From a virus (Duplodnaviria > Caudoviricetes), in the IMG/VR virus record IMGVR_UViG_3300028888_000119, positions 1-64,000 of that record: DNA of 64,000 nt. The stretch is one strand, 5' to 3'. Positions 15,029-49,893 of this stretch are shown in pieces. The notes under the pieces were generated by a model. The model saw only the letters and a program-made list of their open reading frames with translations, was not told where the DNA came from and did no database searches. Position numbers and translations under genes: made by a program. Every line of letters starts with the position of its first letter. Within the stretch, counting starts at the first letter, position 1.

Positions 15029-16537
15029 CTAAAACAGTTTCGGCGAGGAGTCCACGCTCTTTTTGACCTTGACCTTGCTCAGGATTTCCTTCTTAAAGAA
15101 AAACCAATACTTTGAACTTATATTGGCGCCATGTTTCGTCCTAAGCACTTCAATGGCCCTCATGAATGCATCCTTCTGGTTGTCAGCATTTTTTATACAC
15201 ACATTGACAAGAATCCAGTTATTGCTTTTCCCTTCCAATTTCTTCCTAGCGACATAGGACTCCAGAGACTCCTCATCATCTTTGGCAACTATCTCCTGAA
15301 GTTCCGCGTTATAAACTTCTTGTTGTGTCGGCCAGTGGTATCCACAAAAAGCGCAATCTTTCCAGGAGACTGGCACAAGCTTATGGCATTGAGGGCACTC
15401 TTTAACAGGAGCGGGGCCGCCACCAGCACCCGTGTTGTGCCAAAGGCTGTATGTCCGGTCGTCCTCATATCGGCCTAAGCGCTCGTGATTCCTACCAAAA
15501 TCAAGACAAATAAACTCTCCGTTCTTACCTGGTGCGGGACGACTGCAGCGCCCTAAACTTTGTAAATACTTGACAACAGATGTCGTGGAGTACATAAGCA
15601 TTACAACCTTGATGCTCGGCACATCCAGCCCTGCGACTCCGATCCCGAGATTCACAAGAACATCAAACTCGCCATTCTCAAAATCTTTTAGCAACTGCTT
15701 CCTGTCGTCGCTTAACTCTGCATCTTCGTCGAAACTGTTTGACAAGAGGTATTTCGCTTTTATGCCGTGGTTGTTAAACTCTTGCGTAAGCCCGATGCAT
15801 TGCTCGGAACTGCAAGCGAAGACTATCGCCTTCTCGCCTGGGCATATCCGCTGGTAGTTCTCCACGGCTCCTACATACCTTGCTTTAGACTTGAATTTTT
15901 GCGACATTTGGGACAAGTTATAATCTCCTCGGCCATAATCCCATTCGACATCATCCATCGATGGGGCATCCAGCGAGTACAGCTTACACCGACAAAGATA
16001 GCCCATGTTGATGAGGTCCTTCACACTCGGACCAGTAACCATCGCATTGTACTCAAGGCCGGCCTGCTTCATACCTCCATACCTTGCCATTGTTGCCGTA
16101 TATCCAACAACATAGCACTTGTCGGATATGATGTCAAAGAGAAACCCATAATTACAGATATGCGCCTCATCAAGGATTAGCATCTGGACGGACTTGACAT
16201 AATCCAACCATTCCGGTTTCTCAATCCTTCTCTGGAGTGTTTGAACCATCCCGACGGCAACAAGTCCGGTCGGAACTTTCCGGTGCTTTGGCGATATGAT
16301 TTGAGGCTCTACGCCGCATTTTATACACTTTTCGGCATTCTGCTTCATGATTTCCTCGCGGTGCGCTAAAATCAGCGTTCTTGTGCCTTTCTGAGCCGCT
16401 AAAGCCGCAGTATATCCGAGCACTAGCGATTTCCCGGAGCCCGTCGGCATAATGCAGACAACTCGCCTATATCGGGCCAGCGCAGTCCTGATCTCCGAAA
16501 CGGCCTGTTCTTGGTATTTTCTTAACTCTAATGCCAT
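15029..16537 (-). CDS. Superfamily 2 (DEAD/DEAH-like) helicase with Zn finger
   Basis: MPTGSGKS, LDEAH, TAT, QSLGRCSR, CPQC...CAFC; start refined to MALELRKYQ (ATG 16537). Confidence 0.92.
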   Translation of the reverse strand: MALELRKYQEQAVSEIRTALARYRRVVCIMPTGSGKSLVLGYTAALAAQKGTRTLILAHREEIMKQNAEKCIKCGVEPQIISPKHRKVPTGLVAVGMVQTLQRRIEKPEWLDYVKSVQMLILDEAHICNYGFLFDIISDKCYVVGYTATMARYGGMKQAGLEYNAMVTGPSVKDLINMGYLCRCKLYSLDAPSMDDVEWDYGRGDYNLSQMSQKFKSKARYVGAVENYQRICPGEKAIVFACSSEQCIGLTQEFNNHGIKAKYLLSNSFDEDAELSDDRKQLLKDFENGEFDVLVNLGIGVAGLDVPSIKVVMLMYSTTSVVKYLQSLGRCSRPAPGKNGEFICLDFGRNHERLGRYEDDRTYSLWHNTGAGGGPAPVKECPQCHKLVPVSWKDCAFCGYHWPTQQEVYNAELQEIVAKDDEESLESYVARKKLEGKSNNWILVNVCIKNADNQKDAFMRAIEVLRTKHGANISSKYWFFFKKEILSKVKVKKSVDSSPKLF

Positions 16538-16541
16538 ATTG

Positions 16542-16657
16542 CGGACGGAGCAGGACTCGAACCTGCGACTTCGCCCGGCGCCATCTACCAGCATAGCAAT
16601 CAACCGCTGCATACTCCAGTAGTGCCTGCGACCTCTAACCAGCTGAGGTATCCATCC
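16542..16657 (-). ncRNA. tRNA-like RNA 1 with elongated anticodon arm
   Basis: Acceptor GGATGGA/TCCGTCC, D arm CCTC-AGCTGGTTA-GAGG, T arm GCAGG-TTCGAGT-CCTGC; about 64 nt between D and T arms instead of about 22; ends G-CAA. Confidence 0.7.
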
Positions 16658-16662
16658 GATAC

Positions 16663-16715
16663 GCCGCCGTTAGTGCACTCCTGGGCTCACGCGGCGGCAA
16701 TCCTACTACAGCCCA
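16663..16715 (-). ncRNA. Putative H-type pseudoknot 5' of tRNA-like RNA 1
   Basis: Interleaved helices TGGGCT/AGCCCA and GCCGCCG/CGGCGGC in an intergenic gap. Confidence 0.45.
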
Positions 16716-16724
16716 TTTTTCGGA

Positions 16725-17303
16725 TTACGGCACTGGCCTTTCTTCCTCTTGAGGTTTCAAGCGTTTGATATAGACCTTCACCCGATCTCCGACAGCCCAT
16801 CTCCCACCATCTCCGCGATAGCCTACGATGTCCTTCCTGTCTGTAAACACGAACTTCTTGAGGTGTTCCGGTCCGTCAATAGCATCAACAATTTCTCCGA
16901 TACCGATATTCTCGTATTCCTCTCCTATCGCTTCCGGAGACTTCTTGAGCGCTTCGATGAACTCGTCGGCATACTCTACGGACTTATCATAGTTATGCAC
17001 GCCTTCTTTAAAGAAATAGTGCTTAGCCAGCTCATACCGCCTCGCCTCCCACGGGTCAAAGGAGTTCAGTGTGCTTTCAAGCAAAGACGAACCAAAATCG
17101 CCGCCAAAGGGACTATCTACCTTGAAATCCCACTCAAGCGTCAGACGCTCCATGATGTGTTCGTTACCATGAGAGTCAATGTAAGACACCCAGTCATTCT
17201 CGTTGCGAGCGCCTTTCACGGTAGTCTCCCACGCGACAATTTCTACCGGCTCATCCGTCTTACGGAGGCGGTACTTCAAAGAAAATAATGAATTGGTTTC
17301 CAT
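16725..17303 (-). CDS. Hypothetical protein
   Basis: 192 aa, WEARRYELAK motif. Confidence 0.7.
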   Translation of the reverse strand: METNSLFSLKYRLRKTDEPVEIVAWETTVKGARNENDWVSYIDSHGNEHIMERLTLEWDFKVDSPFGGDFGSSLLESTLNSFDPWEARRYELAKHYFFKEGVHNYDKSVEYADEFIEALKKSPEAIGEEYENIGIGEIVDAIDGPEHLKKFVFTDRKDIVGYRGDGGRWAVGDRVKVYIKRLKPQEEERPVP

Positions 17304-17305
17304 AG

Positions 17306-17677
17306 TTATTCTACGATGATATATATTCCTTCTTTGCCATCATTAGACCGCAACTTAGCTGTTTTTATTTCCGCCCAACGGAATCCGAAAATAAAATCAG
17401 GGACGGCAATTTTTGTCTCATCCCCGAGGCCGGCGGCGGCCACGGCCTTCTTGAGGTTACCCCAAGTAGGCTCAATAGTGCCGTCATCGAATAGCGTCTT
17501 CGGCTCATGCCAAATCTCGTAGAAGCCATGTGTAAATTCGTCATCCATAGCCTTGTCGCCATCGTAGAGAGTCACTTTGACAGCGGTCGGAGTTATTGCT
17601 GTAACCTTAAATTGCCGGCCTGCAAATGGCCCTTCCTTCGGCGTCACGCCATACTTAAATAAATCTTCTGTTCTCAT
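17306..17677 (-). CDS. Hypothetical protein
   Basis: 123 aa in operon. Confidence 0.7.
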   Translation of the reverse strand: MRTEDLFKYGVTPKEGPFAGRQFKVTAITPTAVKVTLYDGDKAMDDEFTHGFYEIWHEPKTLFDDGTIEPTWGNLKKAVAAAGLGDETKIAVPDFIFGFRWAEIKTAKLRSNDGKEGIYIIVE

Positions 17678-17958
17678 ATTTTCGTTAGTTTAATTAAATG
17701 CCAAATTCCATCTATTTTCACACCGCGAGATATCCACAATGACTTGACTGCATCAAGTGGGCATCCCCATTCATTCTTACAATAGCCATCAAGTTCCTCA
17801 TTATAACTGCCGTCAGAGTTATTCCATGTGGATATGAACTGAATCGAACATTCGATCCCATCTGCGGTCATGTATTCTTCTGCGTATCCTCCAGAAAACA
17901 CCATTCTTGGAACGAGCGCTTTATCCGCGTACTTAATTGGAATCTGTACCATATACAA
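17674..17958 (-). CDS. Hypothetical protein
   Basis: 94 aa in operon. Confidence 0.6.
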   Translation of the reverse strand: MYMVQIPIKYADKALVPRMVFSGGYAEEYMTADGIECSIQFISTWNNSDGSYNEELDGYCKNEWGCPLDAVKSLWISRGVKIDGIWHLIKLTKI

Positions 17959-18286
17959 CCCATAAACATTCTTCGTCGCTCACAGCCCTCATTCCGTGCC
18001 CCTCCATCTTTGCGTTCGTCTTCCAACGCATCAGTGCACCCTTTATCGTTATTCCGTACCGCATCCGGCACAAAATATCAGCATCCGGTGAGCTGATTTT
18101 GATTTTTCTAACAGCATAAATAGGATATGCAGGCCCGTCAAAGAATACAAGCATATCACCCTTTTTCGCGGAAGCAACATCTTGGTTATATGCATAGCCA
18201 AGTGGGAGTAATACATAACCGAGGTTGAATTCTCCCGGCTCTGTATGATTAATCCTCAATCTCTTCACCCTCGTCGTCAGTTGCAT
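17933..18286 (-). CDS. Hypothetical protein
   Basis: Start uncertain (MQLTTRV at 18286). Confidence 0.6.
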   Translation of the reverse strand: MQLTTRVKRLRINHTEPGEFNLGYVLLPLGYAYNQDVASAKKGDMLVFFDGPAYPIYAVRKIKISSPDADILCRMRYGITIKGALMRWKTNAKMEGHGMRAVSDEECLWVVYGTDSN

Positions 18287-18860
18287 ATACAGGATATTTT
18301 TGGTTACACCGCCATAAGGCGCTCGCAAAATTGTTATATCGATGAGCCGGCAGGTCGTTCTCTATCGCCTTGTCAACCCGCTCGTAGACGAATTGCTGTA
18401 CTAGTGAAATGAAATCCGGTGTTGTAATTGTCACCAGGTGCTGCGGCATCGGCTTCCAATGAATCTTCTTCCTTTGCTTAAACAAGGCAATATTGTTTGG
18501 GTTCGGATATTCAAGCCATTCTTCGATCCCCATTAAATAAAAACGCATTGCAATCGGCAAAATCGCGAAAACAAAAGTGTTTCGAAACCTGTGAATCTTG
18601 TCAATATAAGTATCCGATATAGAGCCTAACCTTCCATAACGACAATAACGATATAGCGTAAACTGCCACCTCTTCCAATCAAAACCATCTGTCGGCTCAT
18701 TAAGCACACCATACCCTCCAGTTTCGAGCATGTGAGTTAGAAACTCTTTGGCAGAATAGTCGTCTTCCAACTCACATGCATCGATAACCCCCTGCTTGAA
18801 ACAATAATCAAACAGCCTTATTGCCTGCGGCCCAGTCGTTCTGTTTAACGGACTCCTCAT
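18249..18860 (-). CDS. Hypothetical protein
   Basis: 203 aa in operon. Confidence 0.7.
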   Translation of the reverse strand: MRSPLNRTTGPQAIRLFDYCFKQGVIDACELEDDYSAKEFLTHMLETGGYGVLNEPTDGFDWKRWQFTLYRYCRYGRLGSISDTYIDKIHRFRNTFVFAILPIAMRFYLMGIEEWLEYPNPNNIALFKQRKKIHWKPMPQHLVTITTPDFISLVQQFVYERVDKAIENDLPAHRYNNFASALWRCNQKYPVYATDDEGEEIED

Positions 18861-19045
18861 CTTGCGTCCACACCAAGATCATTCAAATAAGAAAGAATAT
18901 AAAAATACATACCAAGACCGCATGCTGGCTCTCGTACAACACGGACAATTCTGCCCTCCTCGTATAACGTGGCCAACGGAATTCCGCGCTCGTCCTTAAT
19001 TACGCACCCATTCAAATTCAGCAAGTCTATCGCGTCCCAGCTCAT
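18857..19045 (-). CDS. Hypothetical protein
   Basis: 62 aa with 4-nt overlaps on both sides. Confidence 0.6.
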   Translation of the reverse strand: MSWDAIDLLNLNGCVIKDERGIPLATLYEEGRIVRVVREPACGLGMYFYILSYLNDLGVDAR

Positions 19046-19770
19046 CTTTTATAAAGTTTTCCGTTTTCATCTAAAAGCCATTCACCCTTCTTAAAATTTG
19101 ACGGGTTTATGTCGGAGTCAATCATCGCGTCAAAGATTCGAATTCTATCTTTCATCACCGCAATGGACCCCTCGTAATCTTTTCTATCAAATGTAAACAC
19201 AATTCCCCTCCAAGTGGCAAGCGGAGAATCGGTATCCTCCATGATATCGTCATCTTGAAAAATGTACTTAATGAGCAAAATCTTCTCGACAAGCGGATTA
19301 GAAATAAACTGCCCAAGAAGCTGGTCGCCATGATCTTTAATAACAGCGAGACTTTTCTCTTCGTACGATGTGTAATCATCTCCAAAGAATTCTATTGCCG
19401 CGTTGCCGACGAGAGTCTTAAACTCAAGTACGGTTTTTTCATCCTTCGTAAACGCATCCGGAGAAGCCCCGAGCGGACAGTCCGGAGCAACCCAAAATGG
19501 AATTTCCGGCAAATCTTTGCTATACACGAGGTCATTTATTCCCAAATTCGCCTCGCTCCATTTCATTATCATCGGTTCTTGTTCGTTTCCGATGTCCATG
19601 GCATGCGCATATACCGGATGAGAGAATCCGTGCTTGCGCTCCCATCTTTTTGCCCGGATATAAGAAAGATTGCTGTCGATAATCTTTCCGGAAGCAGACG
19701 TGATCTGACCAAGTTCTGACGCGGTAATCATACCGAGCCGTTTTTTTAACCAAATGTTCTCTTTATTCAT
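19042..19770 (-). CDS. YqaJ / lambda-exonuclease family recombination nuclease
   Basis: WLKKRLGMITASEL...AMDIGNEQEP...GASPDA...LEFK; ATG 19770. Confidence 0.88.
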   Translation of the reverse strand: MNKENIWLKKRLGMITASELGQITSASGKIIDSNLSYIRAKRWERKHGFSHPVYAHAMDIGNEQEPMIMKWSEANLGINDLVYSKDLPEIPFWVAPDCPLGASPDAFTKDEKTVLEFKTLVGNAAIEFFGDDYTSYEEKSLAVIKDHGDQLLGQFISNPLVEKILLIKYIFQDDDIMEDTDSPLATWRGIVFTFDRKDYEGSIAVMKDRIRIFDAMIDSDINPSNFKKGEWLLDENGKLYKR

Positions 19771-19784
19771 AACCTTGTTCAATA

Positions 19785-20336
19785 CTATGCGGGAAGGTCG
19801 GACTGGTCAAGCGCAGAAACAATTGCGTTCTTAATTTTATCGGACCCAAAATCATACATTTTACCGATGTCGGAAATGGTCTTCCCGTTCTTTATGGCCC
19901 AATCAATCACGGATTGCACCTTGTCATCAGTAATGGTTTTCCTCGCCTTAATCTCTTGATCCGGTGCCGGGTCAAGTTTGCTAATCCGAAGACCCCAAGT
20001 CTCTCCTCCGTCTTGTACATCTCTGCACTTTTCTTTTGTCAGCCTAACAGCCACATTGCTCAGTCTGGCAAGATACCCGTCGCAGTCCGGGAATCGCTTA
20101 ACAAGTCTTTTCCGGTTCGTGCTGTTCAAAATAAAAGGCAAATTTGTGTACGGGTTCGGGGCAAAATGTGCAATCCATACGCCGTTCTCGGTCCGTCCGT
20201 TGATCATTTCGCTCTCCTTGTACTCAATACGAGCAATGATAATTCTCTCGATGTCTTTCCCCTCGGGAAGCATCTCAACCCCTGCATGGGTTAATTTCCC
20301 TCCAACTCTGTAGTGAATTGTTCTTTGGTCCTGCAT
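19785..20336 (-). CDS. Putative ssDNA-annealing / recombination partner of the exonuclease
   Basis: 183 aa immediately upstream of exonuclease; PFILNSTNRK motif; function inferred from synteny. Confidence 0.45.
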   Translation of the reverse strand: MQDQRTIHYRVGGKLTHAGVEMLPEGKDIERIIIARIEYKESEMINGRTENGVWIAHFAPNPYTNLPFILNSTNRKRLVKRFPDCDGYLARLSNVAVRLTKEKCRDVQDGGETWGLRISKLDPAPDQEIKARKTITDDKVQSVIDWAIKNGKTISDIGKMYDFGSDKIKNAIVSALDQSDLPA

Positions 20337-20358
20337 ATTATGATTTTTTTGCGTTTTA

Positions 20359-20799
20359 CTACAACTTCTGTGCCATCTTCTTTGTTAAACTTATCTTCCG
20401 CTTCGATTCCTCACTATGATGCTTATTATAGAAGGAATTCTTTTCTCCAAGTTTAACTTCTCTAAATTTTGCCCTTGTAATAGGATTATTTACATTATCT
20501 TTGTGTGAAACCCATCTTAAATTACTAGCCATATCGTTATCCCTCAACCCATCGATATGATCCACCTCAGGTAAATTATTAGGATTTGGCAGGAATGCAA
20601 TTGCCACCAGCCGGTAAACTTTCATGCATTTTCTTTTTCCTTCTCTATAAAGGCAAACATACCTGTAACCTTTTGAATTTTTTGCAGGTGAAAGATAACG
20701 ACCATAACAACGACGATATAATCCTTTCACTTTTCCAAAATTGCTGACTTGATAAAAACCCTCATACCCAGGGATATCCTTCCAAATTTCTTGCTCCAT
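20359..20799 (-). CDS. NUMOD4-HNH-NUMOD3 homing endonuclease
   Basis: EIWKDIPGYEGFYQVSNFGKV; YRLVAIAFLPNP...VDHIDG...NLRW; HHSEESKRKIS; AT-richer than neighbours. Confidence 0.9.
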   Translation of the reverse strand: MEQEIWKDIPGYEGFYQVSNFGKVKGLYRRCYGRYLSPAKNSKGYRYVCLYREGKRKCMKVYRLVAIAFLPNPNNLPEVDHIDGLRDNDMASNLRWVSHKDNVNNPITRAKFREVKLGEKNSFYNKHHSEESKRKISLTKKMAQKL

Positions 20800-20805
20800 A
20801 CTCTT

Positions 20806-20931
20806 AAAAAAGTGCCCGAACTTTCAGTGAATGGTACGAGCAAACACCTACTTATCCGGGCATCCTATATTTCTTCCGCTATCTCGTACATAGCAAGAGC
20901 AAAGATAGCAAATTATTCCGGCAAATACAAG
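20806..20931 (-). promoter_or_regulatory. Promoter and structured leader of HNH gene
   Basis: TATCTTTG (20907-20900), CTTG 20 nt upstream; leader helices GTACGAG/CTCGTAC and TGCCCGGA/TTCGGGCA, then T run. Confidence 0.5.
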
Positions 20932-20972
20932 TCTTCGAAACTAAGCATGTTGAATCTTCTGTTCGTATTCCA

Positions 20973-21446
20973 TCACTGTCTTTTATTAAGATCCTTAACG
21001 GCTTTTTTAATTTTTTTATCGGAAGCCTTACGAATCTTCTTTTGTTCACGCGGGGAAGCCTCTACATACTTCTGTATTTGCTTAACCTCTTCCATCGCCA
21101 CGTCCTCGCTTTCTTCCTCTCCATTATCTTCCAAACGGATACGTTTCTCGTAGTTCTTGATTGCCTTATCGATGTCGTTAACGAACTTCTGGTCGGTAGT
21201 AAGCAACGAACCGATCATATACATCCGCTCAGCGAATCCCTGGGTTTGGTCATCTTGTCCAGCACATAGATATCCATACGGGTGTTCACCAGCGATAAAC
21301 CTGGCTTTGAAATTTCCGCTCAGTGTGGATATATCCAGCCAAAAACGTCTGAAAGACCACTTGAAACCGCCGGCCTCTCCGGTGCGGAGCACCGGATTAT
21401 TGATGGAAAAAAGCCACCATTTTTGAATTTTTTTAAAAATATTCAT
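20973..21446 (-). CDS. Hypothetical protein
   Basis: 157 aa in operon. Confidence 0.7.
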   Translation of the reverse strand: MNIFKKIQKWWLFSINNPVLRTGEAGGFKWSFRRFWLDISTLSGNFKARFIAGEHPYGYLCAGQDDQTQGFAERMYMIGSLLTTDQKFVNDIDKAIKNYEKRIRLEDNGEEESEDVAMEEVKQIQKYVEASPREQKKIRKASDKKIKKAVKDLNKRQ

Positions 21447-21460
21447 AACCTTTTTAAAAT

Positions 21461-21808
21461 TTATTTTTTTCGTGTAACATATATGTCATCTAAGACACGA
21501 TGGACCTCAAAGACGGAGCCAAAATCGTGCTTGATCTTACTTGCAGCACTTCTGGCACTTTGCCAAGAACGAAGTGGAACGACAACATAATCGCCGACTT
21601 CCAGCATCCTCAGTGCTGGATAAACACGTCCGTTTCTCCGCTTGGCGGTCGGAATCTTGCAAGATGGGCAGAAATGCTGTCCCACAACGCTTGCCCAGCC
21701 ACGCCGGACAGCAGCGATACTGGCCTCTTCTGGCGTCTCAAAAGCGACACCCGCAGATTTGCCACAAATGTCGCAAATCGCATCAAATCTTTCAACTGTT
21801 TTAATCAT
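21461..21808 (-). CDS. Zn-ribbon hypothetical protein
   Basis: CDICG...HFCPSC plus small C-terminal domain. Confidence 0.7.
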   Translation of the reverse strand: MIKTVERFDAICDICGKSAGVAFETPEEASIAAVRRGWASVVGQHFCPSCKIPTAKRRNGRVYPALRMLEVGDYVVVPLRSWQSARSAASKIKHDFGSVFEVHRVLDDIYVTRKK

Positions 21809-22737
21809 ATAACTCCCGTTTTTTTGTATACAATCATGTCACCGATATCTGCATGGCTTGGAATCTGGTCCAGCGCACACCCCCATTTGTCCCACCATGG
21901 CCATACCTCTCCTTTTTCTTCCCATTCCGCCCTCGCGTCCATGTCTGGAACAAGCATCATATTGGGCTCTATTTCACGCAAATTTGACTTTCCTCCGGTC
22001 GCTAAGAATCTTCTTCCGCCATAGTACAATGATGCCAAAATTGCGGTCTTTTCCGACTCTACAATAAAAGCCTTCTTACCGTCATCAGGAATGCATGCTC
22101 CAAAATAGCACTTGCCGCAGAATCCATCTCCAACACGGAACTGACGCCCCGGGAAAAACGCCTTGTCTCTATGGCCGTCATCCTTATATGCGATCCTCTT
22201 GTCAAACAAAATTCGACCGTCTTGGTCCACATACCAATATACCGCATTCCCATGAGAATCTGTAGTTACATTATAACGATTCCAGACATCCCGGACATCT
22301 TCCTCTTTGAATATCTTGCACATCCAGCGGAACAGCGGGCAGCTTTCAAGAGGATATTCCCTTGCACCATCTAATACATCACTGCCAACATACCGAATAC
22401 CAGGTGATGATTTTTCTCGCAATGATCTGGTCCACTGAATGGCTTGGCTTTCTCCATTAATCATCTTCAATGCCTCGTGATAGTCAGCCGCACCGCCAAA
22501 CTCAATCAGCCACTGAGGAAGTGAAATACACCTTCCGCCCTCCTCGTTAACCCATACGGAACCACGGCTGATAAACACCTTCAGTTTGTCTTTCCGGAAA
22601 GCATGTCGGTCTCCATTCAAGTAATATCCGCCCTGGAATCCCCTACCATGCTCTTTCAAATCCATACACATCAACTTCGGTGCATTCCTTAACGCGACCA
22701 GTGGGTCATAAGAAAATCTGAATCCGTCTTTTCCCAT
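21805..22737 (-). CDS. Toprim/primase-like protein (DUF6371-like)
   Basis: VYWYVDQDG...KRIAY...CYFG...IVESEKTA...LATGG...VPDMD; start refined to MGKDGF (22737). Confidence 0.7.
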   Translation of the reverse strand: MGKDGFRFSYDPLVALRNAPKLMCMDLKEHGRGFQGGYYLNGDRHAFRKDKLKVFISRGSVWVNEEGGRCISLPQWLIEFGGAADYHEALKMINGESQAIQWTRSLREKSSPGIRYVGSDVLDGAREYPLESCPLFRWMCKIFKEEDVRDVWNRYNVTTDSHGNAVYWYVDQDGRILFDKRIAYKDDGHRDKAFFPGRQFRVGDGFCGKCYFGACIPDDGKKAFIVESEKTAILASLYYGGRRFLATGGKSNLREIEPNMMLVPDMDARAEWEEKGEVWPWWDKWGCALDQIPSHADIGDMIVYKKTGVI

Positions 22738-22738
22738 A

Positions 22739-24274
22739 TTAGAAAGGTAAATTAGAATCATCATTCGCAAGACCAAACGCACTCCGGTCTTCAACTGGCA
22801 GATCATCGTCGGCGCTCTCTTCCGGCTCCTGCTTTATACCTATGCAATACCATGTACCACTGCCGCGACGGCTACGCTCGAACCCGAGGTCATCAAATAT
22901 CTTTGCGACAGACTTTGCCGTCTTCGGGGCTTCACCGTAATCCTTGCAGTACTGCTGGTAAATCTGCATCCACTCCTTCAAAGACTTCCATCTTGGGTCT
23001 TTCATGCTGAAAGGCGTTACCGCGACATAGCCATACTCGCGAATCCACCTGCGGGCGGAATTAGAGTCAGCCTTCATGTCTGCCTTTAACTCCAAAACCG
23101 CATCGGACATGTCAATTTTGCAATCATTGGCGATTAATTCTTTATACCCTTCCAGCATCCAGTTGAATATGGCGGATCTTACCTTATTCTCCCTTAACTT
23201 CGCCTCCAGCTGTGGGTCTCTGTTCTCTTCAGACACCTTGTTCGGGCAGTTGATAATAAGAAATCGCCTGAAATATCCATCTGAATCATCCGTTGTCGGT
23301 GGAATCTTATTCGCACAGCACAACATGATCGGGACTTTCGTCACATAAGTCATCTCGCGACTGTATGGGCTCCTGCCGGTAAACTCTCCGCCGGACACGA
23401 AAGCCTTGAAATCACCACCGGAAAAATCCTTGTCGGAGACATCGTCGCAATAATTCATTATTTTCCCATTAACCTCCGCCATGTGATAATCCATTTGGTT
23501 GCTCTTGAACAATTGCTCCGGAGTAAATGTCGTCACACATTTTGTAACCTGCCTCCCATCCTCATCCTCGTTCTTAAAAACATTCACTAGAGCCTTGGCA
23601 ATAATACTCTTACCATTCTGCCCCTCACCGACCAAGAAACATATATACTCAAACTTGTGCTCCGACCGGTCTATAAGAAATGCGCCACAAAACTGCTGGT
23701 ATGCCTTCCTCATGCCGGGGTCCGGAACCGTCGTAGTAATAACCTTGTCCCACAATCCACTCTTTGCGTCTATGTCGTAACTGAAATTGAAGATAATGTC
23801 GGTGCAATACTTGAAATCATGCGGATATATCCTCAGTGTCTTCATGTCCAAAACGCAGTTCTCAAAGCAAACATAACGCCTATCCGGATTGAACTGGTGC
23901 CTCCCGTCTTCAACCAATGACGCAATGCAATACTTGGCAATCCGCTCAGCAGAATCCATCCGGTACACAATACCGACCTCTGTCCTGCGCATGACTTCAC
24001 GGATGATGCCCGTAAATACGACATCGTTCATCATCTCGAAATACTTACCATTGAATACGTGGAGCATTCCCATTGAGTCAACGCGGAAGTAATCGTTGCC
24101 AGAATCTCCGACAATTCCACATATATATCTGCGGAATGACTCGGCAATCCCGGCCTCGGTCCTCTTGTTTACCCGCTCATCATCTTGACCGGAACCTCCT
24201 ATCGATGCTCCTGCCGTATGACATAAATAGTCTATTATGTACTCGTATTTCACTGAAAACTTGCGGTTTTTCAA
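22739..24274 (-). CDS. D5-like / P4-family SF3 primase-associated helicase
   Basis: CFENCVLD, Walker A GEGQNGKS, Walker B YCDD, motif C CANKIP, GYFRRFLII; TTG start. Confidence 0.9.
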   Translation of the reverse strand: MKNRKFSVKYEYIIDYLCHTAGASIGGSGQDDERVNKRTEAGIAESFRRYICGIVGDSGNDYFRVDSMGMLHVFNGKYFEMMNDVVFTGIIREVMRRTEVGIVYRMDSAERIAKYCIASLVEDGRHQFNPDRRYVCFENCVLDMKTLRIYPHDFKYCTDIIFNFSYDIDAKSGLWDKVITTTVPDPGMRKAYQQFCGAFLIDRSEHKFEYICFLVGEGQNGKSIIAKALVNVFKNEDEDGRQVTKCVTTFTPEQLFKSNQMDYHMAEVNGKIMNYCDDVSDKDFSGGDFKAFVSGGEFTGRSPYSREMTYVTKVPIMLCCANKIPPTTDDSDGYFRRFLIINCPNKVSEENRDPQLEAKLRENKVRSAIFNWMLEGYKELIANDCKIDMSDAVLELKADMKADSNSARRWIREYGYVAVTPFSMKDPRWKSLKEWMQIYQQYCKDYGEAPKTAKSVAKIFDDLGFERSRRGSGTWYCIGIKQEPEESADDDLPVEDRSAFGLANDDSNLPF

Positions 24275-24408
24275 TAAAAAGCAAGAACAGACAGGGCCTC
24301 TTCGGAAAGAGGTGGGTACTCCCTATCTGCTCTTGCTGAATCTCTCTGTCGTGCGCCGTACCCCTAAGCGCGGATTGCAAAGATGCAAAAATTATTCCAT
24401 ATATCAAA
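24271..24408 (-). promoter_or_regulatory. Promoter and attenuator-like leader of SF3 helicase
   Basis: CATCTTTG (24385-24378) with TTTG 19 nt upstream; 17-bp stem 24337-24321/24296-24280 followed by T run and TTG start. Confidence 0.55.
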
Positions 24409-25129
24409 AAAGTTTCAACTCGCTCCCGACCTGTTCCTTACCAAGAATGAAATCACATATGAAATTCCTTGCATAATCCGGACTGATCATACTCCGCTCC
24501 TCATTGCACAAACCCGGCATGTGATTCGGCTCGATCTGGCAGATATTCTTCCCGGCCTTGCGCGGTTGCATAGTATTCCCGTGCGTAGGCTCGCAGTTCA
24601 CGAACCAGTATGCAGTCGGCTTCACATAATAATCCCCTCTCAACAGCCGGTTCTTGTCAATCACCGACGGATTCGTGATGAAGTTCTGCTTCAAGAATGT
24701 CTGCTCACTCCACGGATTCTCCATGATCATCCGCAAACCCCTATCATAACACACCGAATGCATCTTCACAGCAAGCGCGAAGAACCGCTCTCGCTTCGCA
24801 GACCGCTCTAAAATTGCTTCCGTTTTCTCCCGAACACCCAAATTCCTGTAATTCCTGTGCGTCCAGCTGATAAGCATCTGGCTCATGCACGAAAAGTATA
24901 TGCACGGAAAGAATGCCAGAACCAAATCATCCTTTTTGACACGGTCCCATACGCTCGATTCGCCATCATACGCCTTCTCTATCTCGGAAAACAAATCAAT
25001 TTGGAAGTCCGTCTCGCCGAAATTGTCTTGAATATCATAGTCAAAAGCAGGAATTCCCAACTTTAGAAACTCGCGCTTGAACGTCCCTGACTGCTCAAAA
25101 AAGCAGTGAACACTTCCATTGATCTCCAT
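24404..25129 (-). CDS. Small C5-cytosine methyltransferase-like protein
   Basis: Motif I variant CFFEQSGTF, catalytic FFPC, motif VI MENP; only 241 aa. Confidence 0.65.
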   Translation of the reverse strand: MEINGSVHCFFEQSGTFKREFLKLGIPAFDYDIQDNFGETDFQIDLFSEIEKAYDGESSVWDRVKKDDLVLAFFPCIYFSCMSQMLISWTHRNYRNLGVREKTEAILERSAKRERFFALAVKMHSVCYDRGLRMIMENPWSEQTFLKQNFITNPSVIDKNRLLRGDYYVKPTAYWFVNCEPTHGNTMQPRKAGKNICQIEPNHMPGLCNEERSMISPDYARNFICDFILGKEQVGSELKLF

Positions 25130-25130
25130 T

Positions 25131-25439
25131 CTATTTCAATGTATCAAAATCGCAGTATCTGAGCGCAATCAAGCGCAGCTCATCTCCCATCTTCCGTGCA
25201 TTCTCCAGCATCTGTTCCCGTGTCAGCCCGAGCCTGGACCAATAAACAAACGAACGGTCCAAAAGAACATCGCAGAAGATGGTCATTGCATCCTTTATCA
25301 CACAATCATCATAACACGGCAGATCACCAGGAAACGATTCCATCCGTTCCAAAATAGCATCGGAAATCTCGGATAAAACCGGCCCCATCTTATCGCCGAA
25401 TGTCGGCTCGCCTATAATATCTCTAAGTTTTTTTTCCAT
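25131..25439 (-). CDS. Hypothetical protein
   Basis: Start refined to MEKKLRD (25439), right after tRNA-like RNA 2. Confidence 0.65.
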   Translation of the reverse strand: MEKKLRDIIGEPTFGDKMGPVLSEISDAILERMESFPGDLPCYDDCVIKDAMTIFCDVLLDRSFVYWSRLGLTREQMLENARKMGDELRLIALRYCDFDTLK

Positions 25440-25440
25440 G

Positions 25441-25545
25441 TGGCTGGGAAGGGATTCGAACCCCTGTCTACCGCAGAGCGCTAACACGAAATAAACACTA
25501 AACTCAAAAAATCCCGGTCGCTGCTACCAATTGCACCACCCAGCC
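25441..25545 (-). ncRNA. tRNA-like RNA 2 with U-rich anticodon insertion
   Basis: Acceptor GGCTGGG/CCCAGCC-A, D loop AATTGGTA, T loop TTCGAAT in AGGGG/CCCTT; lower anticodon stem ACCG/CGGT encloses about 40 nt. Confidence 0.7.
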
Positions 25546-25618
25546 ATGTGTGCCGGGTTTCCCCGGCAAAAGCATGATATGTGTAAAAGATTATAATTAC
25601 GGCGCATCACTGCGACGT

Positions 25619-25707
25619 TGGTGGAGAGGGGCGGAGTCGAACCGCCTAATGAGTTTTGGGAATGGACAAAACCCTGCTCCCTATCCGATTAGAAGCCTAT
25701 CCTCTCC
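25619..25707 (-). ncRNA. tRNA-like RNA 3 with encoded CCA and atypical D/anticodon arms
   Basis: Acceptor GGAGAGG/CCTCTCC-A-CCA, T arm GGCGG-TTCGACT-CCGCC; 8-bp stem GGGTTTTG/CAAAACTC with 8-nt loop TCCATTCC. Confidence 0.7.
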
Positions 25708-26972: not shown

Positions 26973-27120
26973 ATTTCTCGAAATTTACTTCCTTGCTTGC
27001 CAAACCGATTCCCTTCCGCCGCTCGATCTCGGTCCGAATGGCCACCAGTTCGTCAGTCTTCCGCCTCGCCAGAACCTCAAGGTCCGCAAGGCTCATTACT
27101 TTCCATTCGCCATTATTCAT
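26956..27120 (-). CDS. Small hypothetical protein
   Basis: Manual translation MNNGEWKVMSLADLEVLARR..., 54 aa, TAATG-coupled. Confidence 0.5.
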   Translation of the reverse strand: MNNGEWKVMSLADLEVLARRKTDELVAIRTEIERRKGIGLASKEVNFEKYVSED

Positions 27121-27602
27121 TATTCATATCTCCAAATAAATCCCTTACTCTTCTTGCCAAGTCCGTCCGCGCACCGCTTGATCAAAGCCCGGGACACTCC
27201 GGTCCGCTCCGACGCCTCGTGAAGGCTCGCGAACCGCCCGACACAGATCCCGTCCAGCGTGTACTGCGCCACCCTCCTGCCTGACTCCACCGGCCTTCCG
27301 GCCCTTCCCCACTTGCGCTTCTCGCTCCACCGGAGGTTCTCCACCCGGTTGTTCTCCTTATTCCCGTCCTTGTGCACCACATACGGCCGCCCCTCGGCAT
27401 TCGCGAGGAACGCCCTCGCCACGAGGTACGCCACATCCACGCGGTCCATCCTTCCCTTCCAGCACAAATTCACGAACCGGCCCCTTATCAAGGACATCTC
27501 GAATCCGCCGCTGTACACCCTGCCGAGATCGCCAACCTCGTAGCGACCGCCATAGCCGGGCACCGGCTTGCGCCTTTCCTTTCTTTCCGCGACGAATATC
27601 AT
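27120..27602 (-). CDS. NUMOD4-HNH-NUMOD1 homing endonuclease
   Basis: PVPGYGGRYEVGDLGRV; VVHKDGNKENNRVENLRW; VAQYTLDG...FASLHEASERTG. Confidence 0.8.
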   Translation of the reverse strand: MIFVAERKERRKPVPGYGGRYEVGDLGRVYSGGFEMSLIRGRFVNLCWKGRMDRVDVAYLVARAFLANAEGRPYVVHKDGNKENNRVENLRWSEKRKWGRAGRPVESGRRVAQYTLDGICVGRFASLHEASERTGVSRALIKRCADGLGKKSKGFIWRYE

Positions 27603-27953: not shown

Positions 27954-27985
27954 CAAAAATAAGCCGTTTTTCCCGATTTTCCAAA
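27954..27985 (-). promoter_or_regulatory. Leftward promoter PL
   Basis: TATTTTTG (27961-27954) and TTTG (27985-27982), 20-nt spacing. Confidence 0.7.
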
Positions 27986-48957: not shown

Positions 48958-49893
48958 CTAGAATACTACACCGTTACCGAATCCGCCCCAGCCCGGGCCA
49001 TAGTAACCGCCGCCGAAGCCGCCCTGGTAATAACCGCCGCTCACATATGGAGTAGCATTCACCGCGACAAGATTCGGGTACTGTACAGTTGCCGTAGAAG
49101 GGAGTTTGCATTTGATGTCGTCAACCTCACGTGCAAGAGGAGCGATCATGCCGGCGATTGCGTTGGTCTGGCGAGCGTTGTCAGCCTCGTTACGCAGCTG
49201 GGTAATAATGTCGCCCTGGCGGGTGATAGTCTGCTGCATGTCGCGTTTCTCGGCGGCACAGAACTGGTCAATCATCGTGGACTTGAGGTCTGCGATGGCA
49301 CCGGCAAGAGTCTCGGTCTGACGGAGGGTTGCGAGCTGGTTCTCGTAGCCCTGGGAGGTGACGAGCTGCTTCATTTCGCAACAGCACGAACATAAGTTTG
49401 CAGCGAGGCTAGCGTCACCGGCCTGGATTGCGTTGATGATCTGCTGTGCGGAGAGGCCGGTCTGGCCAGTCAAAGCAGTGAGTCCGTTCTGCAGGGTTGC
49501 GAGGTTGGTCTTCACGGTATTGACATCGCTGTTGAGGGTTGTGGCCAGGAGGCGCACGTCGCTGTCAGTTCCGTCGATAGCGCGAAGGATAGTGTCGGTG
49601 TTGCCGATTGCTGTTGCCTGAGCGCCAAGGGAAGCCGCAGCAGCGCCGCCGCCATTACCCCAGCTATTCATGCCCCAGTTTCCGAATCCGACGCCGTTCC
49701 AGATGAGCCCTCCGAGGAGACCACCAAGGATACCGGCTCCAAAGCCAGATCCGCCGAAAAGACCACCGCCGTAAGGGTAGCCATTATTCCAGCCAAGGCC
49801 ATTTCCGTTCAGAGCCAGGGCCAGAGGAATCCCACTGTTCCAACCACTCGACTGGTTGTCCGGCAGGATTATCGTTTTACTTTCATCAGCCAT
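48958..49893 (-). CDS. Gly-rich / coiled-coil / CSCCC protein (module gene 1)
   Basis: N-terminal Gly-zipper hydrophobic segment, long heptad region, LCSCCC, Gly/Tyr-rich C-terminus. Confidence 0.85.
   Translation of the reverse strand: MADESKTIILPDNQSSGWNSGIPLALALNGNGLGWNNGYPYGGGLFGGSGFGAGILGGLLGGLIWNGVGFGNWGMNSWGNGGGAAAASLGAQATAIGNTDTILRAIDGTDSDVRLLATTLNSDVNTVKTNLATLQNGLTALTGQTGLSAQQIINAIQAGDASLAANLCSCCCEMKQLVTSQGYENQLATLRQTETLAGAIADLKSTMIDQFCAAEKRDMQQTITRQGDIITQLRNEADNARQTNAIAGMIAPLAREVDDIKCKLPSTATVQYPNLVAVNATPYVSGGYYQGGFGGGYYGPGWGGFGNGVVF

Follow-up and report, generated by a model that had tools for sequence, protein, structure and literature searches.

tRNA-shaped elements without an anticodon arm in the replication operon of a rumen Bacteroidales phage

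What can a tRNA-shaped gene be for when the arm that reads the codon is missing? This question is raised by three elements, named here W1, W2 and W3, of the IMG/VR virus record IMGVR_UViG_3300028888_000119 (Caudoviricetes), of which the first 64 kb (the window) were analysed out of a 72.7-kb sequence rated as complete by CheckV. All three are encoded on the minus strand, as are the genes that flank them, and have in common a 7-bp acceptor stem, a GG in the D loop, and a TTCGA T arm, the anticodon arm (a 5-bp stem and a 7-nt loop with U33 and R37) being absent from every one of them. The reading that we favour, and to which we give about an even chance, is that RNase P and the 3'-end enzymes of the host excise W1-W3, freeing stable tRNA-framed RNAs with lineage-specific arms and cutting the mRNA. 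The elements are built of the following parts:

16542-16657, minus strand: W1, tRNA-shaped RNA of 116 nt (Rfam tRNA match; minimum-free-energy fold)
16657-16651 with 16549-16543, minus strand: W1 acceptor stem
16648-16632, minus strand: W1 D arm
16631-16571, minus strand: W1 irregular hairpin of 61 nt in place of the anticodon arm
16566-16550, minus strand: W1 T arm, with the discriminator G at 16542
25441-25545, minus strand: W2, tRNA-shaped RNA of 105 nt (Rfam tRNA match)
25545-25539 with 25448-25442, minus strand: W2 acceptor stem
about 25536-25520, minus strand: W2 D arm
25518-25470, minus strand: W2 closing stem of 4 bp (ACCG/CGGU) with a U/G-rich insert of 41 nt
25465-25449, minus strand: W2 T arm, with the discriminator A at 25441
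25619-25707, minus strand: W3, degenerate tRNA-shaped RNA of 86 nt plus an encoded CCA at 25621-25619 (fold and scanner)
25707-25701 with 25629-25623, minus strand: W3 acceptor stem
25696-25676, minus strand: W3 atypical D-like stem of 6 bp with a 9-nt GG loop, and a 4-nt connector
25674-25651, minus strand: W3 stem of 8 bp with an 8-nt loop, replacing the anticodon arm
25646-25630, minus strand: W3 T arm, GGCGG/TTCGACT/CCGCC

The initial annotation had described three elements at these places with acceptor, D and T arms and no canonical anticodon arm, and on both points it is borne out. W1 and W2 match the tRNA model of Rfam (RF00005, gathering score 29 bits) at 39.6 and 39.3 bits, in each case only by skipping nucleotides in the anticodon arm (55 and 41 nt, respectively); W3, which matches neither this model nor the covariance model R1, is recognized from its fold and by a scanner; and the strict test for an anticodon arm is failed by all three. 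In its default mode, ARAGORN reports no tRNA in the whole 64 kb. The scanner, which looks for a T arm and a perfect 7-bp acceptor stem, picks out exactly W1-W3 in the window and nothing in 20 shuffles, and a stricter version that also demands a D arm finds W1 and W2, with one chance match in 20 shuffles. W1 and W2 are class I tRNA frames, W1 having as its minimum-free-energy fold a cloverleaf with a long arm. W3 also folds as a cloverleaf (z = -3.1, one of 200 shuffles being equally good), has an encoded ACCA at its 3' end, and starts 10 nt past the stop of the conserved open reading frame (ORF) X, where relatives have their first tRNA-like element. The 8-nt sequence GUCGCAGG stands as a direct repeat on either side of the W1 arm (16624-16631 and 16561-16568, minus strand); as it provides a second copy of the 5' strand of the T stem, it led the covariance model to mis-register W1, and it is probably lineage-specific, since it is absent from the relatives L097 and L099. 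A transfer-messenger RNA (tmRNA) was rejected: ARAGORN run with -m finds none, the 3-70 pairs are A-U, C-G and A-U and not G-U, and the models reach 10-15 bits where 47 are needed. Rfam matches to tmRNA, the Tymovirus tRNA-like element, the preQ1 riboswitch and a plastid untranslated region are either far below threshold or antisense images of the T arm.

Are these elements simply the remains of tRNA genes? Decay of an ancestral tRNA cluster into functionless pseudogenes would agree with the tRNA-Gln-like loop UUUUGUC that W3 retains in a broken stem, with the arrays of elements found at the usual phage tRNA-cluster site, and with the normal Met, Thr, Ser, and Gln tRNAs that some relatives keep there. 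However, decay would hit all arms alike, and this is not the pattern seen in the relatives, about 50 contigs of related ~70-kb phages, mostly from rumen-type metagenomes, collected by primase- and helicase-based searches. A covariance model of the tRNA frame, whose alignment was used because a MAFFT alignment of all elements scrambled the D arm, gave 58 matches in these relatives, 42 of them distinct. Across the 42, pairing in the acceptor, D and T helices amounts to 95%, changes on both sides are found at 15 of 16 helix pairs, and the processing flanks are kept. For covariation the elements score 0.76, whereas shuffles give 0.21 (none of 500 reaching the observed value) and slid registers 0.11-0.18; some of this signal comes from the elements having had different tRNAs as ancestors and not from substitutions in situ. 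Within one orthologous group, the W1 type, the acceptor pair 4-69 occurs as U-G, U-A and C-G; in family B, compensation reaches all seven acceptor pairs; and the W2 orthologous frame in L005, L006, L039, and L031 shows compensation in its acceptor and T stems and in the closing stem, with inserts that differ.

By the strict test, a canonical anticodon arm is present in 3 of the 42 elements (Met CAU, Thr UGU, and Ser UGA), a fourth, Gln UUG, passing only the looser anticodon-arm test of the scanner, compared with 59 of 88 tRNA loci of unrelated phages. This control set came from a search of viral contigs for a variable loop plus T-arm motif and consists mostly of ordinary tRNAs. At the syntenic sites, relatives carry stems with 3-4-nt loops, 8-10-nt loops, or hairpins of 30-70 nt, and an identical odd 10-nt loop is conserved in L005 and L021 despite their different acceptor and T stems. 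Since the helices stay paired with compensation and odd loops are kept among relatives, the elements are not the outcome of random decay, as the initial annotation had already argued; the versions in relatives are anticodon-less as well and carry compensatory changes, so that the refuting outcome named in that annotation, normal tRNAs at these sites and no compensation, did not come about, and we regard the pseudogene explanation as very unlikely. The comparison indicates that the decoding arm has been specifically lost, and that the elements are under selection rather than decaying.

In some relatives several elements are arrayed in a row, and some elements are followed by a promoter and not by a gene. 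In a distant relative, three such elements are expressed from their own TAACTTTG promoter: a 75-kb phage-like contig (C95 of G011), binned with a Candidatus Cryptobacteroides metagenome-assembled genome (MAG), has three anticodon-less elements at 49314-49756 (L152), the first of which begins about 10 nt past this promoter motif. Unrelated IMG/VR phages (L046, L047, and L052) have tRNA clusters with non-U33 loops or long inserts, and odd phage tRNAs seem, from such sequences, to be common beyond the clade of W1-W3.

The W1 arm is common to L092, L073, L097, and L099, with a conserved apical motif and five compensatory pairs, and a second insert type is nearly invariant in L013, L014, L028, and L100-L105; in the IMG/VR viral-contig collection, neither type occurs outside this tRNA frame. 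By these comparisons, the arms are lineage-specific and under constraint. A Cas12a-repeat-like CUAC...GUAGAU in the W1 arm was dropped, as it is not conserved in L097 or L099.

Could the arms be introns, spliced out to give working tRNAs? This has been proposed for the Lak megaphages of Prevotella, which are reported to have tRNAs with enigmatic introns, the anticodon and isotype being assignable and the inserts read as introns (10.1101/356790). Like W1-W3, the Lak tRNAs belong to phages of Bacteroidales, and their genes are oversized, with an insert in the anticodon region; for W1 and W2, however, excision cannot restore an anticodon arm. This was examined by making every possible single excision within the arms of 15 long-insert elements, with a stem of 5 bp and a loop of 7 nt having U33 and R37 as the target: a canonical arm is restored in neither W1 nor W2 and in 1 of the 15 elements overall, against 0.9% of shuffles. 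The one success (L003 1456-1557) has a class I frame and, upon removal of 30 nt at 37/38, yields the perfect arm CUUUA/UUGAGGA/UAAAG with the anticodon GAG; its insert could be a true intron, the only such case among the relatives. ARAGORN also proposes introns when run with -i or relaxed settings, namely a forced Ile(GAU) with a 22-nt intron and a long variable arm in intron mode, and a forced Ala(AGC) with a 28-nt intron under relaxed -ps only, and both are ruled out by the exhaustive excision test. Moreover, at 41-55 nt the inserts fall far short of the size of a group I intron, no Rfam family matches the inserts, including any group I intron or ribozyme, the 3-4-nt loops of syntenic relatives are beyond repair by splicing, no RtcB gene was found in the phage, and the host is bacterial. 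We give this explanation almost no credence.

If the elements are neither relics nor intron-bearing tRNAs, the setting in which they are transcribed becomes relevant. The window encodes a terminase, portal, primase, helicase, DNA methyltransferase, dUTPase, YqaJ exonuclease, VRR-NUC nuclease, and two HNH/NUMOD endonucleases; the latter, of the homing type, lie within the replication operon (20359-20799 and 27120-27602, both on the minus strand). A megablast search of the region against 50,697 phage records gave no match. The nearest cultured phages have Parabacteroides, Bacteroides, and Phocaeicola as hosts, and the 75-kb contig that is binned with the Candidatus Cryptobacteroides genome encodes a helicase of 42% identity. 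Promoters of the Bacteroidota type (TTTG-N17-23-TAnnTTTG) have six full matches in the window against 1.8 expected, and four of the six lie directly upstream of the gene blocks that were checked: 27954-27985 (minus strand), 29099 (plus strand), 12588 (minus strand), and 9162 (minus strand). Because of these promoter motifs and the Parabacteroides and Bacteroides hosts of the nearest cultured phages, the host is assigned to the Bacteroidota, and the phage is a rumen Bacteroidales phage. One of the motifs bears directly on the elements:

27954-27985, minus strand: Bacteroidota-type promoter, TTTG-N-TAnnTTTG, at the head of the minus-strand replication operon in which W3, W2 and W1 lie

TAnnTTTG is missing from the minus strand over 27954-23868 and over 19188-15993, the nearest upstream promoter motifs for the elements being those at 27954 and 19188. 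As no such motif lies near them, W3, W2 and W1 are part of a polycistronic early/replication operon of about 15 kb and have no promoter of their own.

Do the elements then look like substrates for the tRNA-maturation enzymes of such a host? They retain the acceptor/T stack of 7+5 bp and the D/T elbow, and with these U at -1, C74 and a purine as the discriminator. U at -1 is found in 31 of 43 elements, C at position 74 in 40 and A or G at position 75 in 36, where the base background is about 23-28%. The 30 sampled tRNA genes of the Candidatus Cryptobacteroides MAG G011 show U(-1) in 20 cases and C74 in all 30, whereas CCA is encoded in only nine and CAA in another nine, CGA being also common. 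Because C74 is universal in these genes while CCA is encoded in only nine, a conserved C74-dependent 3'-end pathway is suggested. By this comparison, which is with one genome (G011), the phage elements carry the flank signature of the tRNA genes of this Bacteroidales genome (U at -1, C74, and CCA mostly not encoded), and this signature is the strongest indirect evidence that the elements mature as tRNAs do.

The position of the elements with respect to the neighbouring genes is equally peculiar, as the initial annotation had noticed in pointing out that two of them end at a downstream ATG. Both ATGs were confirmed, and they are listed here together with the structures next to the elements:

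16535-16537, minus strand: ATG of the helicase gene (15029-16537), 4 nt past the W1 discriminator, with a CAAT spacer and no Shine-Dalgarno sequence
25437-25439, minus strand: ATG of a 102-codon ORF (25131-25439), 1 nt (C) past the W2 discriminator
25552-25567, minus strand: hairpin GCCGGG-GAAA-CCCGGC, read from the sequence, 6 nt upstream of the W2 5' end
25603-25614, minus strand: hairpin CGCA-GUGA-UGCG with a GNRA loop, 4 nt past the W3 CCA
16662-16714, minus strand: conserved structured non-coding element directly 5' of W1, after the stop of the upstream ORF

The gene at 15029-16537 matches the PHROG DNA helicase (E 5.5e-70), and its homologues align from residue 1-3. The CAAT-ATG spacing, or a similar one, recurs after elements located before the helicase in L073, L011, and L028, and before a small upstream ORF in L006 and L092. 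The ORF at 25131-25439 runs into the methyltransferase and primase genes. Across 43 elements, an ATG followed by at least 20 open codons lies within 7 nt of the discriminator in 14, where a rough estimate of chance is about 2. With the folded 12-bp acceptor/T stack only 1-6 nt from the AUG, the 30S subunit should bind poorly as long as the stack stays in place.

Many elements have a stable hairpin 0-13 nt upstream, and GAAA-type hairpins that resemble the one before W2 precede elements in L003, L005, and L032; the CGCA-GUGA-UGCG hairpin recurs 3-10 nt downstream of tRNA-like elements in L003, L036, L087, and L079. At the W1 end, the conserved element at 16662-16714 has a helix GGGCU/AGCCC that interleaves with GCCGCCG/CGGCGGC, so that a pseudoknot is possible. 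It is the minimal version of a 90-175-nt element of relatives (L069 9814-9904, L085 2262-2354, L100 4861-4957, and L027 2555-2667), whose copies gain a GGCGUAAUUGCC hairpin and another that is variable, compensatory changes being seen in each, and it shows 91-96% DNA identity among relatives whose neighbouring protein is 52-77% identical. It has no match in Rfam and, as a candidate new RNA motif, is possibly a 3'-end protector or an attenuator; were RNase P to cut at W1, the mRNA piece upstream would terminate in it. Its reading as a -1 frameshift or readthrough signal was ruled out by the true stop TAA at 16725-16727.

Such an arrangement brings to mind the tRNA punctuation of animal mitochondria and the MALAT1/mascRNA pair, where abutting tRNAs or tRNA-like structures are cut by RNase P and RNase Z, the ends of the neighbouring RNAs being defined by these cuts, and where mascRNA is a non-decoding tRNA-like by-product. 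W1 and W2 are likewise tRNA-shaped units within a polycistron that abut the next start, at 4 and 1 nt, respectively. Those systems, on the other hand, are organellar or eukaryotic and their cleavage has been demonstrated, whereas W1-W3 belong to a bacterial host, their cleavage is deduced and the elements are optional. The cut might even be the sole selected function, as in mitochondria, separating cistrons and setting their stability or translation, with the RNA as waste. The adjacency to start codons, the upstream hairpins, and the host-type flanks are what this explanation predicts, the relatives with minimal 3-4-nt capped arms suit it, and so does the failure to find an own promoter for the elements in the window. 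Nevertheless, among close relatives the presence of an element varies at one and the same gene junction, the alternative being a simple stop/start overlap; the long arms are conserved with compensatory changes; elements occur in arrays or are followed by a promoter instead of a gene; and the distant relative supplies its elements with their own promoter. We therefore hold it rather doubtful that punctuation is all there is. The processing signal that the initial annotation offered as one possibility fits the 12-bp stack, the elbow, the host-type flanks and the operon site, but it is not the whole story, as the elements are optional and their arms conserved.

The favoured reading, excision together with release of a stable RNA, starts from what is observed, namely the shape, the conservation, the host-type flanks, the operon position, and the start-codon adjacency; from there we infer that the elements are cut out, that the RNA so released is stable, and whatever the arm may do. 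W1-W3 would be genes for non-decoding tRNA-framed small RNAs, transcribed within the operon from the promoter near 27985. Host RNase P would cut the 5' end of each element, and the 3' end would be trimmed by the host 3'-end pathway, that is, an endonuclease or exonucleases followed by the CCA-adding enzyme. Stable RNAs of about 90-120 nt would be released, whose lineage-specific hairpin arm may be the working part. The same excision would cut the polycistronic mRNA, leaving an upstream piece that ends in a stable hairpin and, downstream, a cistron that begins 1-4 nt before its AUG, either the helicase or the ORF that runs on into the methyltransferase and primase. Four features argue that the excised RNA itself matters: the elements are optional, their arms turn over fast, several may stand in a row, and in the distant relative they have a promoter of their own; and the lineage-specific, structurally conserved arms suggest that it has a job beyond the mRNA cut, although the capped-arm relatives indicate that the frame alone can suffice.

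Several observations weigh against this reading. In many relatives that have no element at the junction, the helicase starts by a stop/start overlap (ATGA or TGATATG), which makes the element an optional alternative and the mRNA cut dispensable. The arm is not a universal working part, because relatives with 3-4-nt capped arms carry no cargo, and no target of the three arms emerged from a comparison with the phage's own genome, in which the longest complementary stretch measures 10 nt and does not exceed the mean of shuffles. The ORF at 25131-25439 has no Pfam family and no homologue in the relatives' loci that were compared, so that only its packing and its length speak for its being a gene. 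Finally, W3, with its atypical D region, may be a poorer substrate for processing.

If an RNA is freed, on what might it act? Instead of carrying an active arm, the tRNA body, perhaps CCA-tailed, might serve, as in the other possibility raised by the initial annotation, as a decoy or sponge that titrates a host factor recognizing the tRNA shape, candidates being a tRNA-targeting nuclease or nucleotidyltransferase, Ro60/Rsr with RtcB, or a tRNA-modifying enzyme; an RNA with no anticodon loop could then not be inactivated as a translator. Rapid turnover and presence or absence among relatives are typical of counter-defence loci, conservation is limited to the parts that all tRNAs share, Bacteroides thetaiotaomicron encodes TROVE/Ro60 and RtcB, and tRNA-cleaving defences are well documented (PMC13056530). 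However, anticodon nucleases require precisely the loop that is absent here, the window offers no strong promoter for a high copy number, no tRNA-targeting defence or counter-defence gene was found adjoining the elements, and the phage counter-measures on record, among them those in the reference list of PMC13056530, are functional tRNAs with altered loops and not decoys lacking an anticodon. We consider this explanation improbable. A bacterial parallel is YrlA (RF02553; PMC4201824), the Y RNA partner of Ro60/Rsr, which is also non-decoding and has a mimic of the tRNA elbow next to a long helix, but whose topology is permuted, with ends in the long helix and a closed acceptor mimic. Even though the likely host group encodes Ro60 and RtcB, identity with YrlA or another bacterial Y RNA was rejected, as the elements have no RF02553 match and no TROVE/Ro60 gene was found in the phage.

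Phage RNAs of a comparable kind have been at hand for a long time. T4 rnaC (species 1, 139 nt) and rnaD (species 2, 119 nt) are small RNAs encoded among tRNA genes, have no anticodon and are matured from a tRNA precursor; rnaC ends in a CCGGG/UUCGAAU/CCCGG T arm, and its two ends are paired around large hairpins. To our knowledge, no function has been assigned to these tRNA-like stable RNAs in the roughly fifty years since they became known. They differ from W1-W3 in that they show neither sequence nor model similarity to them (the covariance model R1 matches the eight T4 tRNAs and neither rnaC nor rnaD), in that rnaC has no D arm, and in that they belong to a dedicated tRNA cluster, whereas W1 and W2 stand against protein starts in a replication operon. 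W1-W3 are the same kind of object, the resemblance being one of kind and not of descent. A second case is the tRNA-Undet of the cultured Bacteroides phage LoVEphage (MW660583.1 29237-29439), annotated in two pieces, which has a tRNA frame with an arm of about 90 nt and lies between small ORFs. This element (L116 1501-1663), of 163-203 nt and annotated as tRNA-His/tRNA-Undet, has a class II frame with a Leu/Tyr-like D arm, as opposed to the class I frames of W1 and W2, and it is not discussed in the LoVEphage paper (PMC8525569). The literature searched contains no account, for phages, of tRNA-frame RNAs lacking an anticodon or of tRNA punctuation; the present case joins non-decoding tRNA-frame RNAs and tRNA-abutted starts, with class I frames, in a new clade.

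A further step beyond excision and release, which we put forward as tentative, would be to see in these elements a natural tRNA-scaffold system, in which the frame hijacks host processing and CCA addition to free cassette RNAs that act on host factors, and to produce near-leaderless replication mRNAs. The factors could be, for example, tRNA- or RNA-targeting immunity, in a counter-defence role, or Ro60/RtcB RNA repair, and the same cut would couple small-RNA release to gene expression. In the engineered tRNA scaffold (PMC3753655), an RNA of interest replaces the anticodon arm, and tRNA enzymes process and stabilise the chimera, but this is a laboratory tool and not a natural system; no natural phage counterpart with lineage-specific inserts is described in the literature searched.

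For phage annotation, in which oversized intron-bearing or undetermined tRNAs are routinely dismissed, this clade shows selection on such genes: the selected part is exactly what the tRNA-maturation enzymes read, and the elements are coupled directly to replication-gene start codons. The comparable element of LoVEphage, being in a cultured phage, makes the matter experimentally tractable. If the cleavage is confirmed, W1-W3 would be to bacterial viruses what tRNA punctuation is to mitochondria, would give the engineered tRNA scaffold a precedent in nature, and would open up phage small RNAs of a new class for study.

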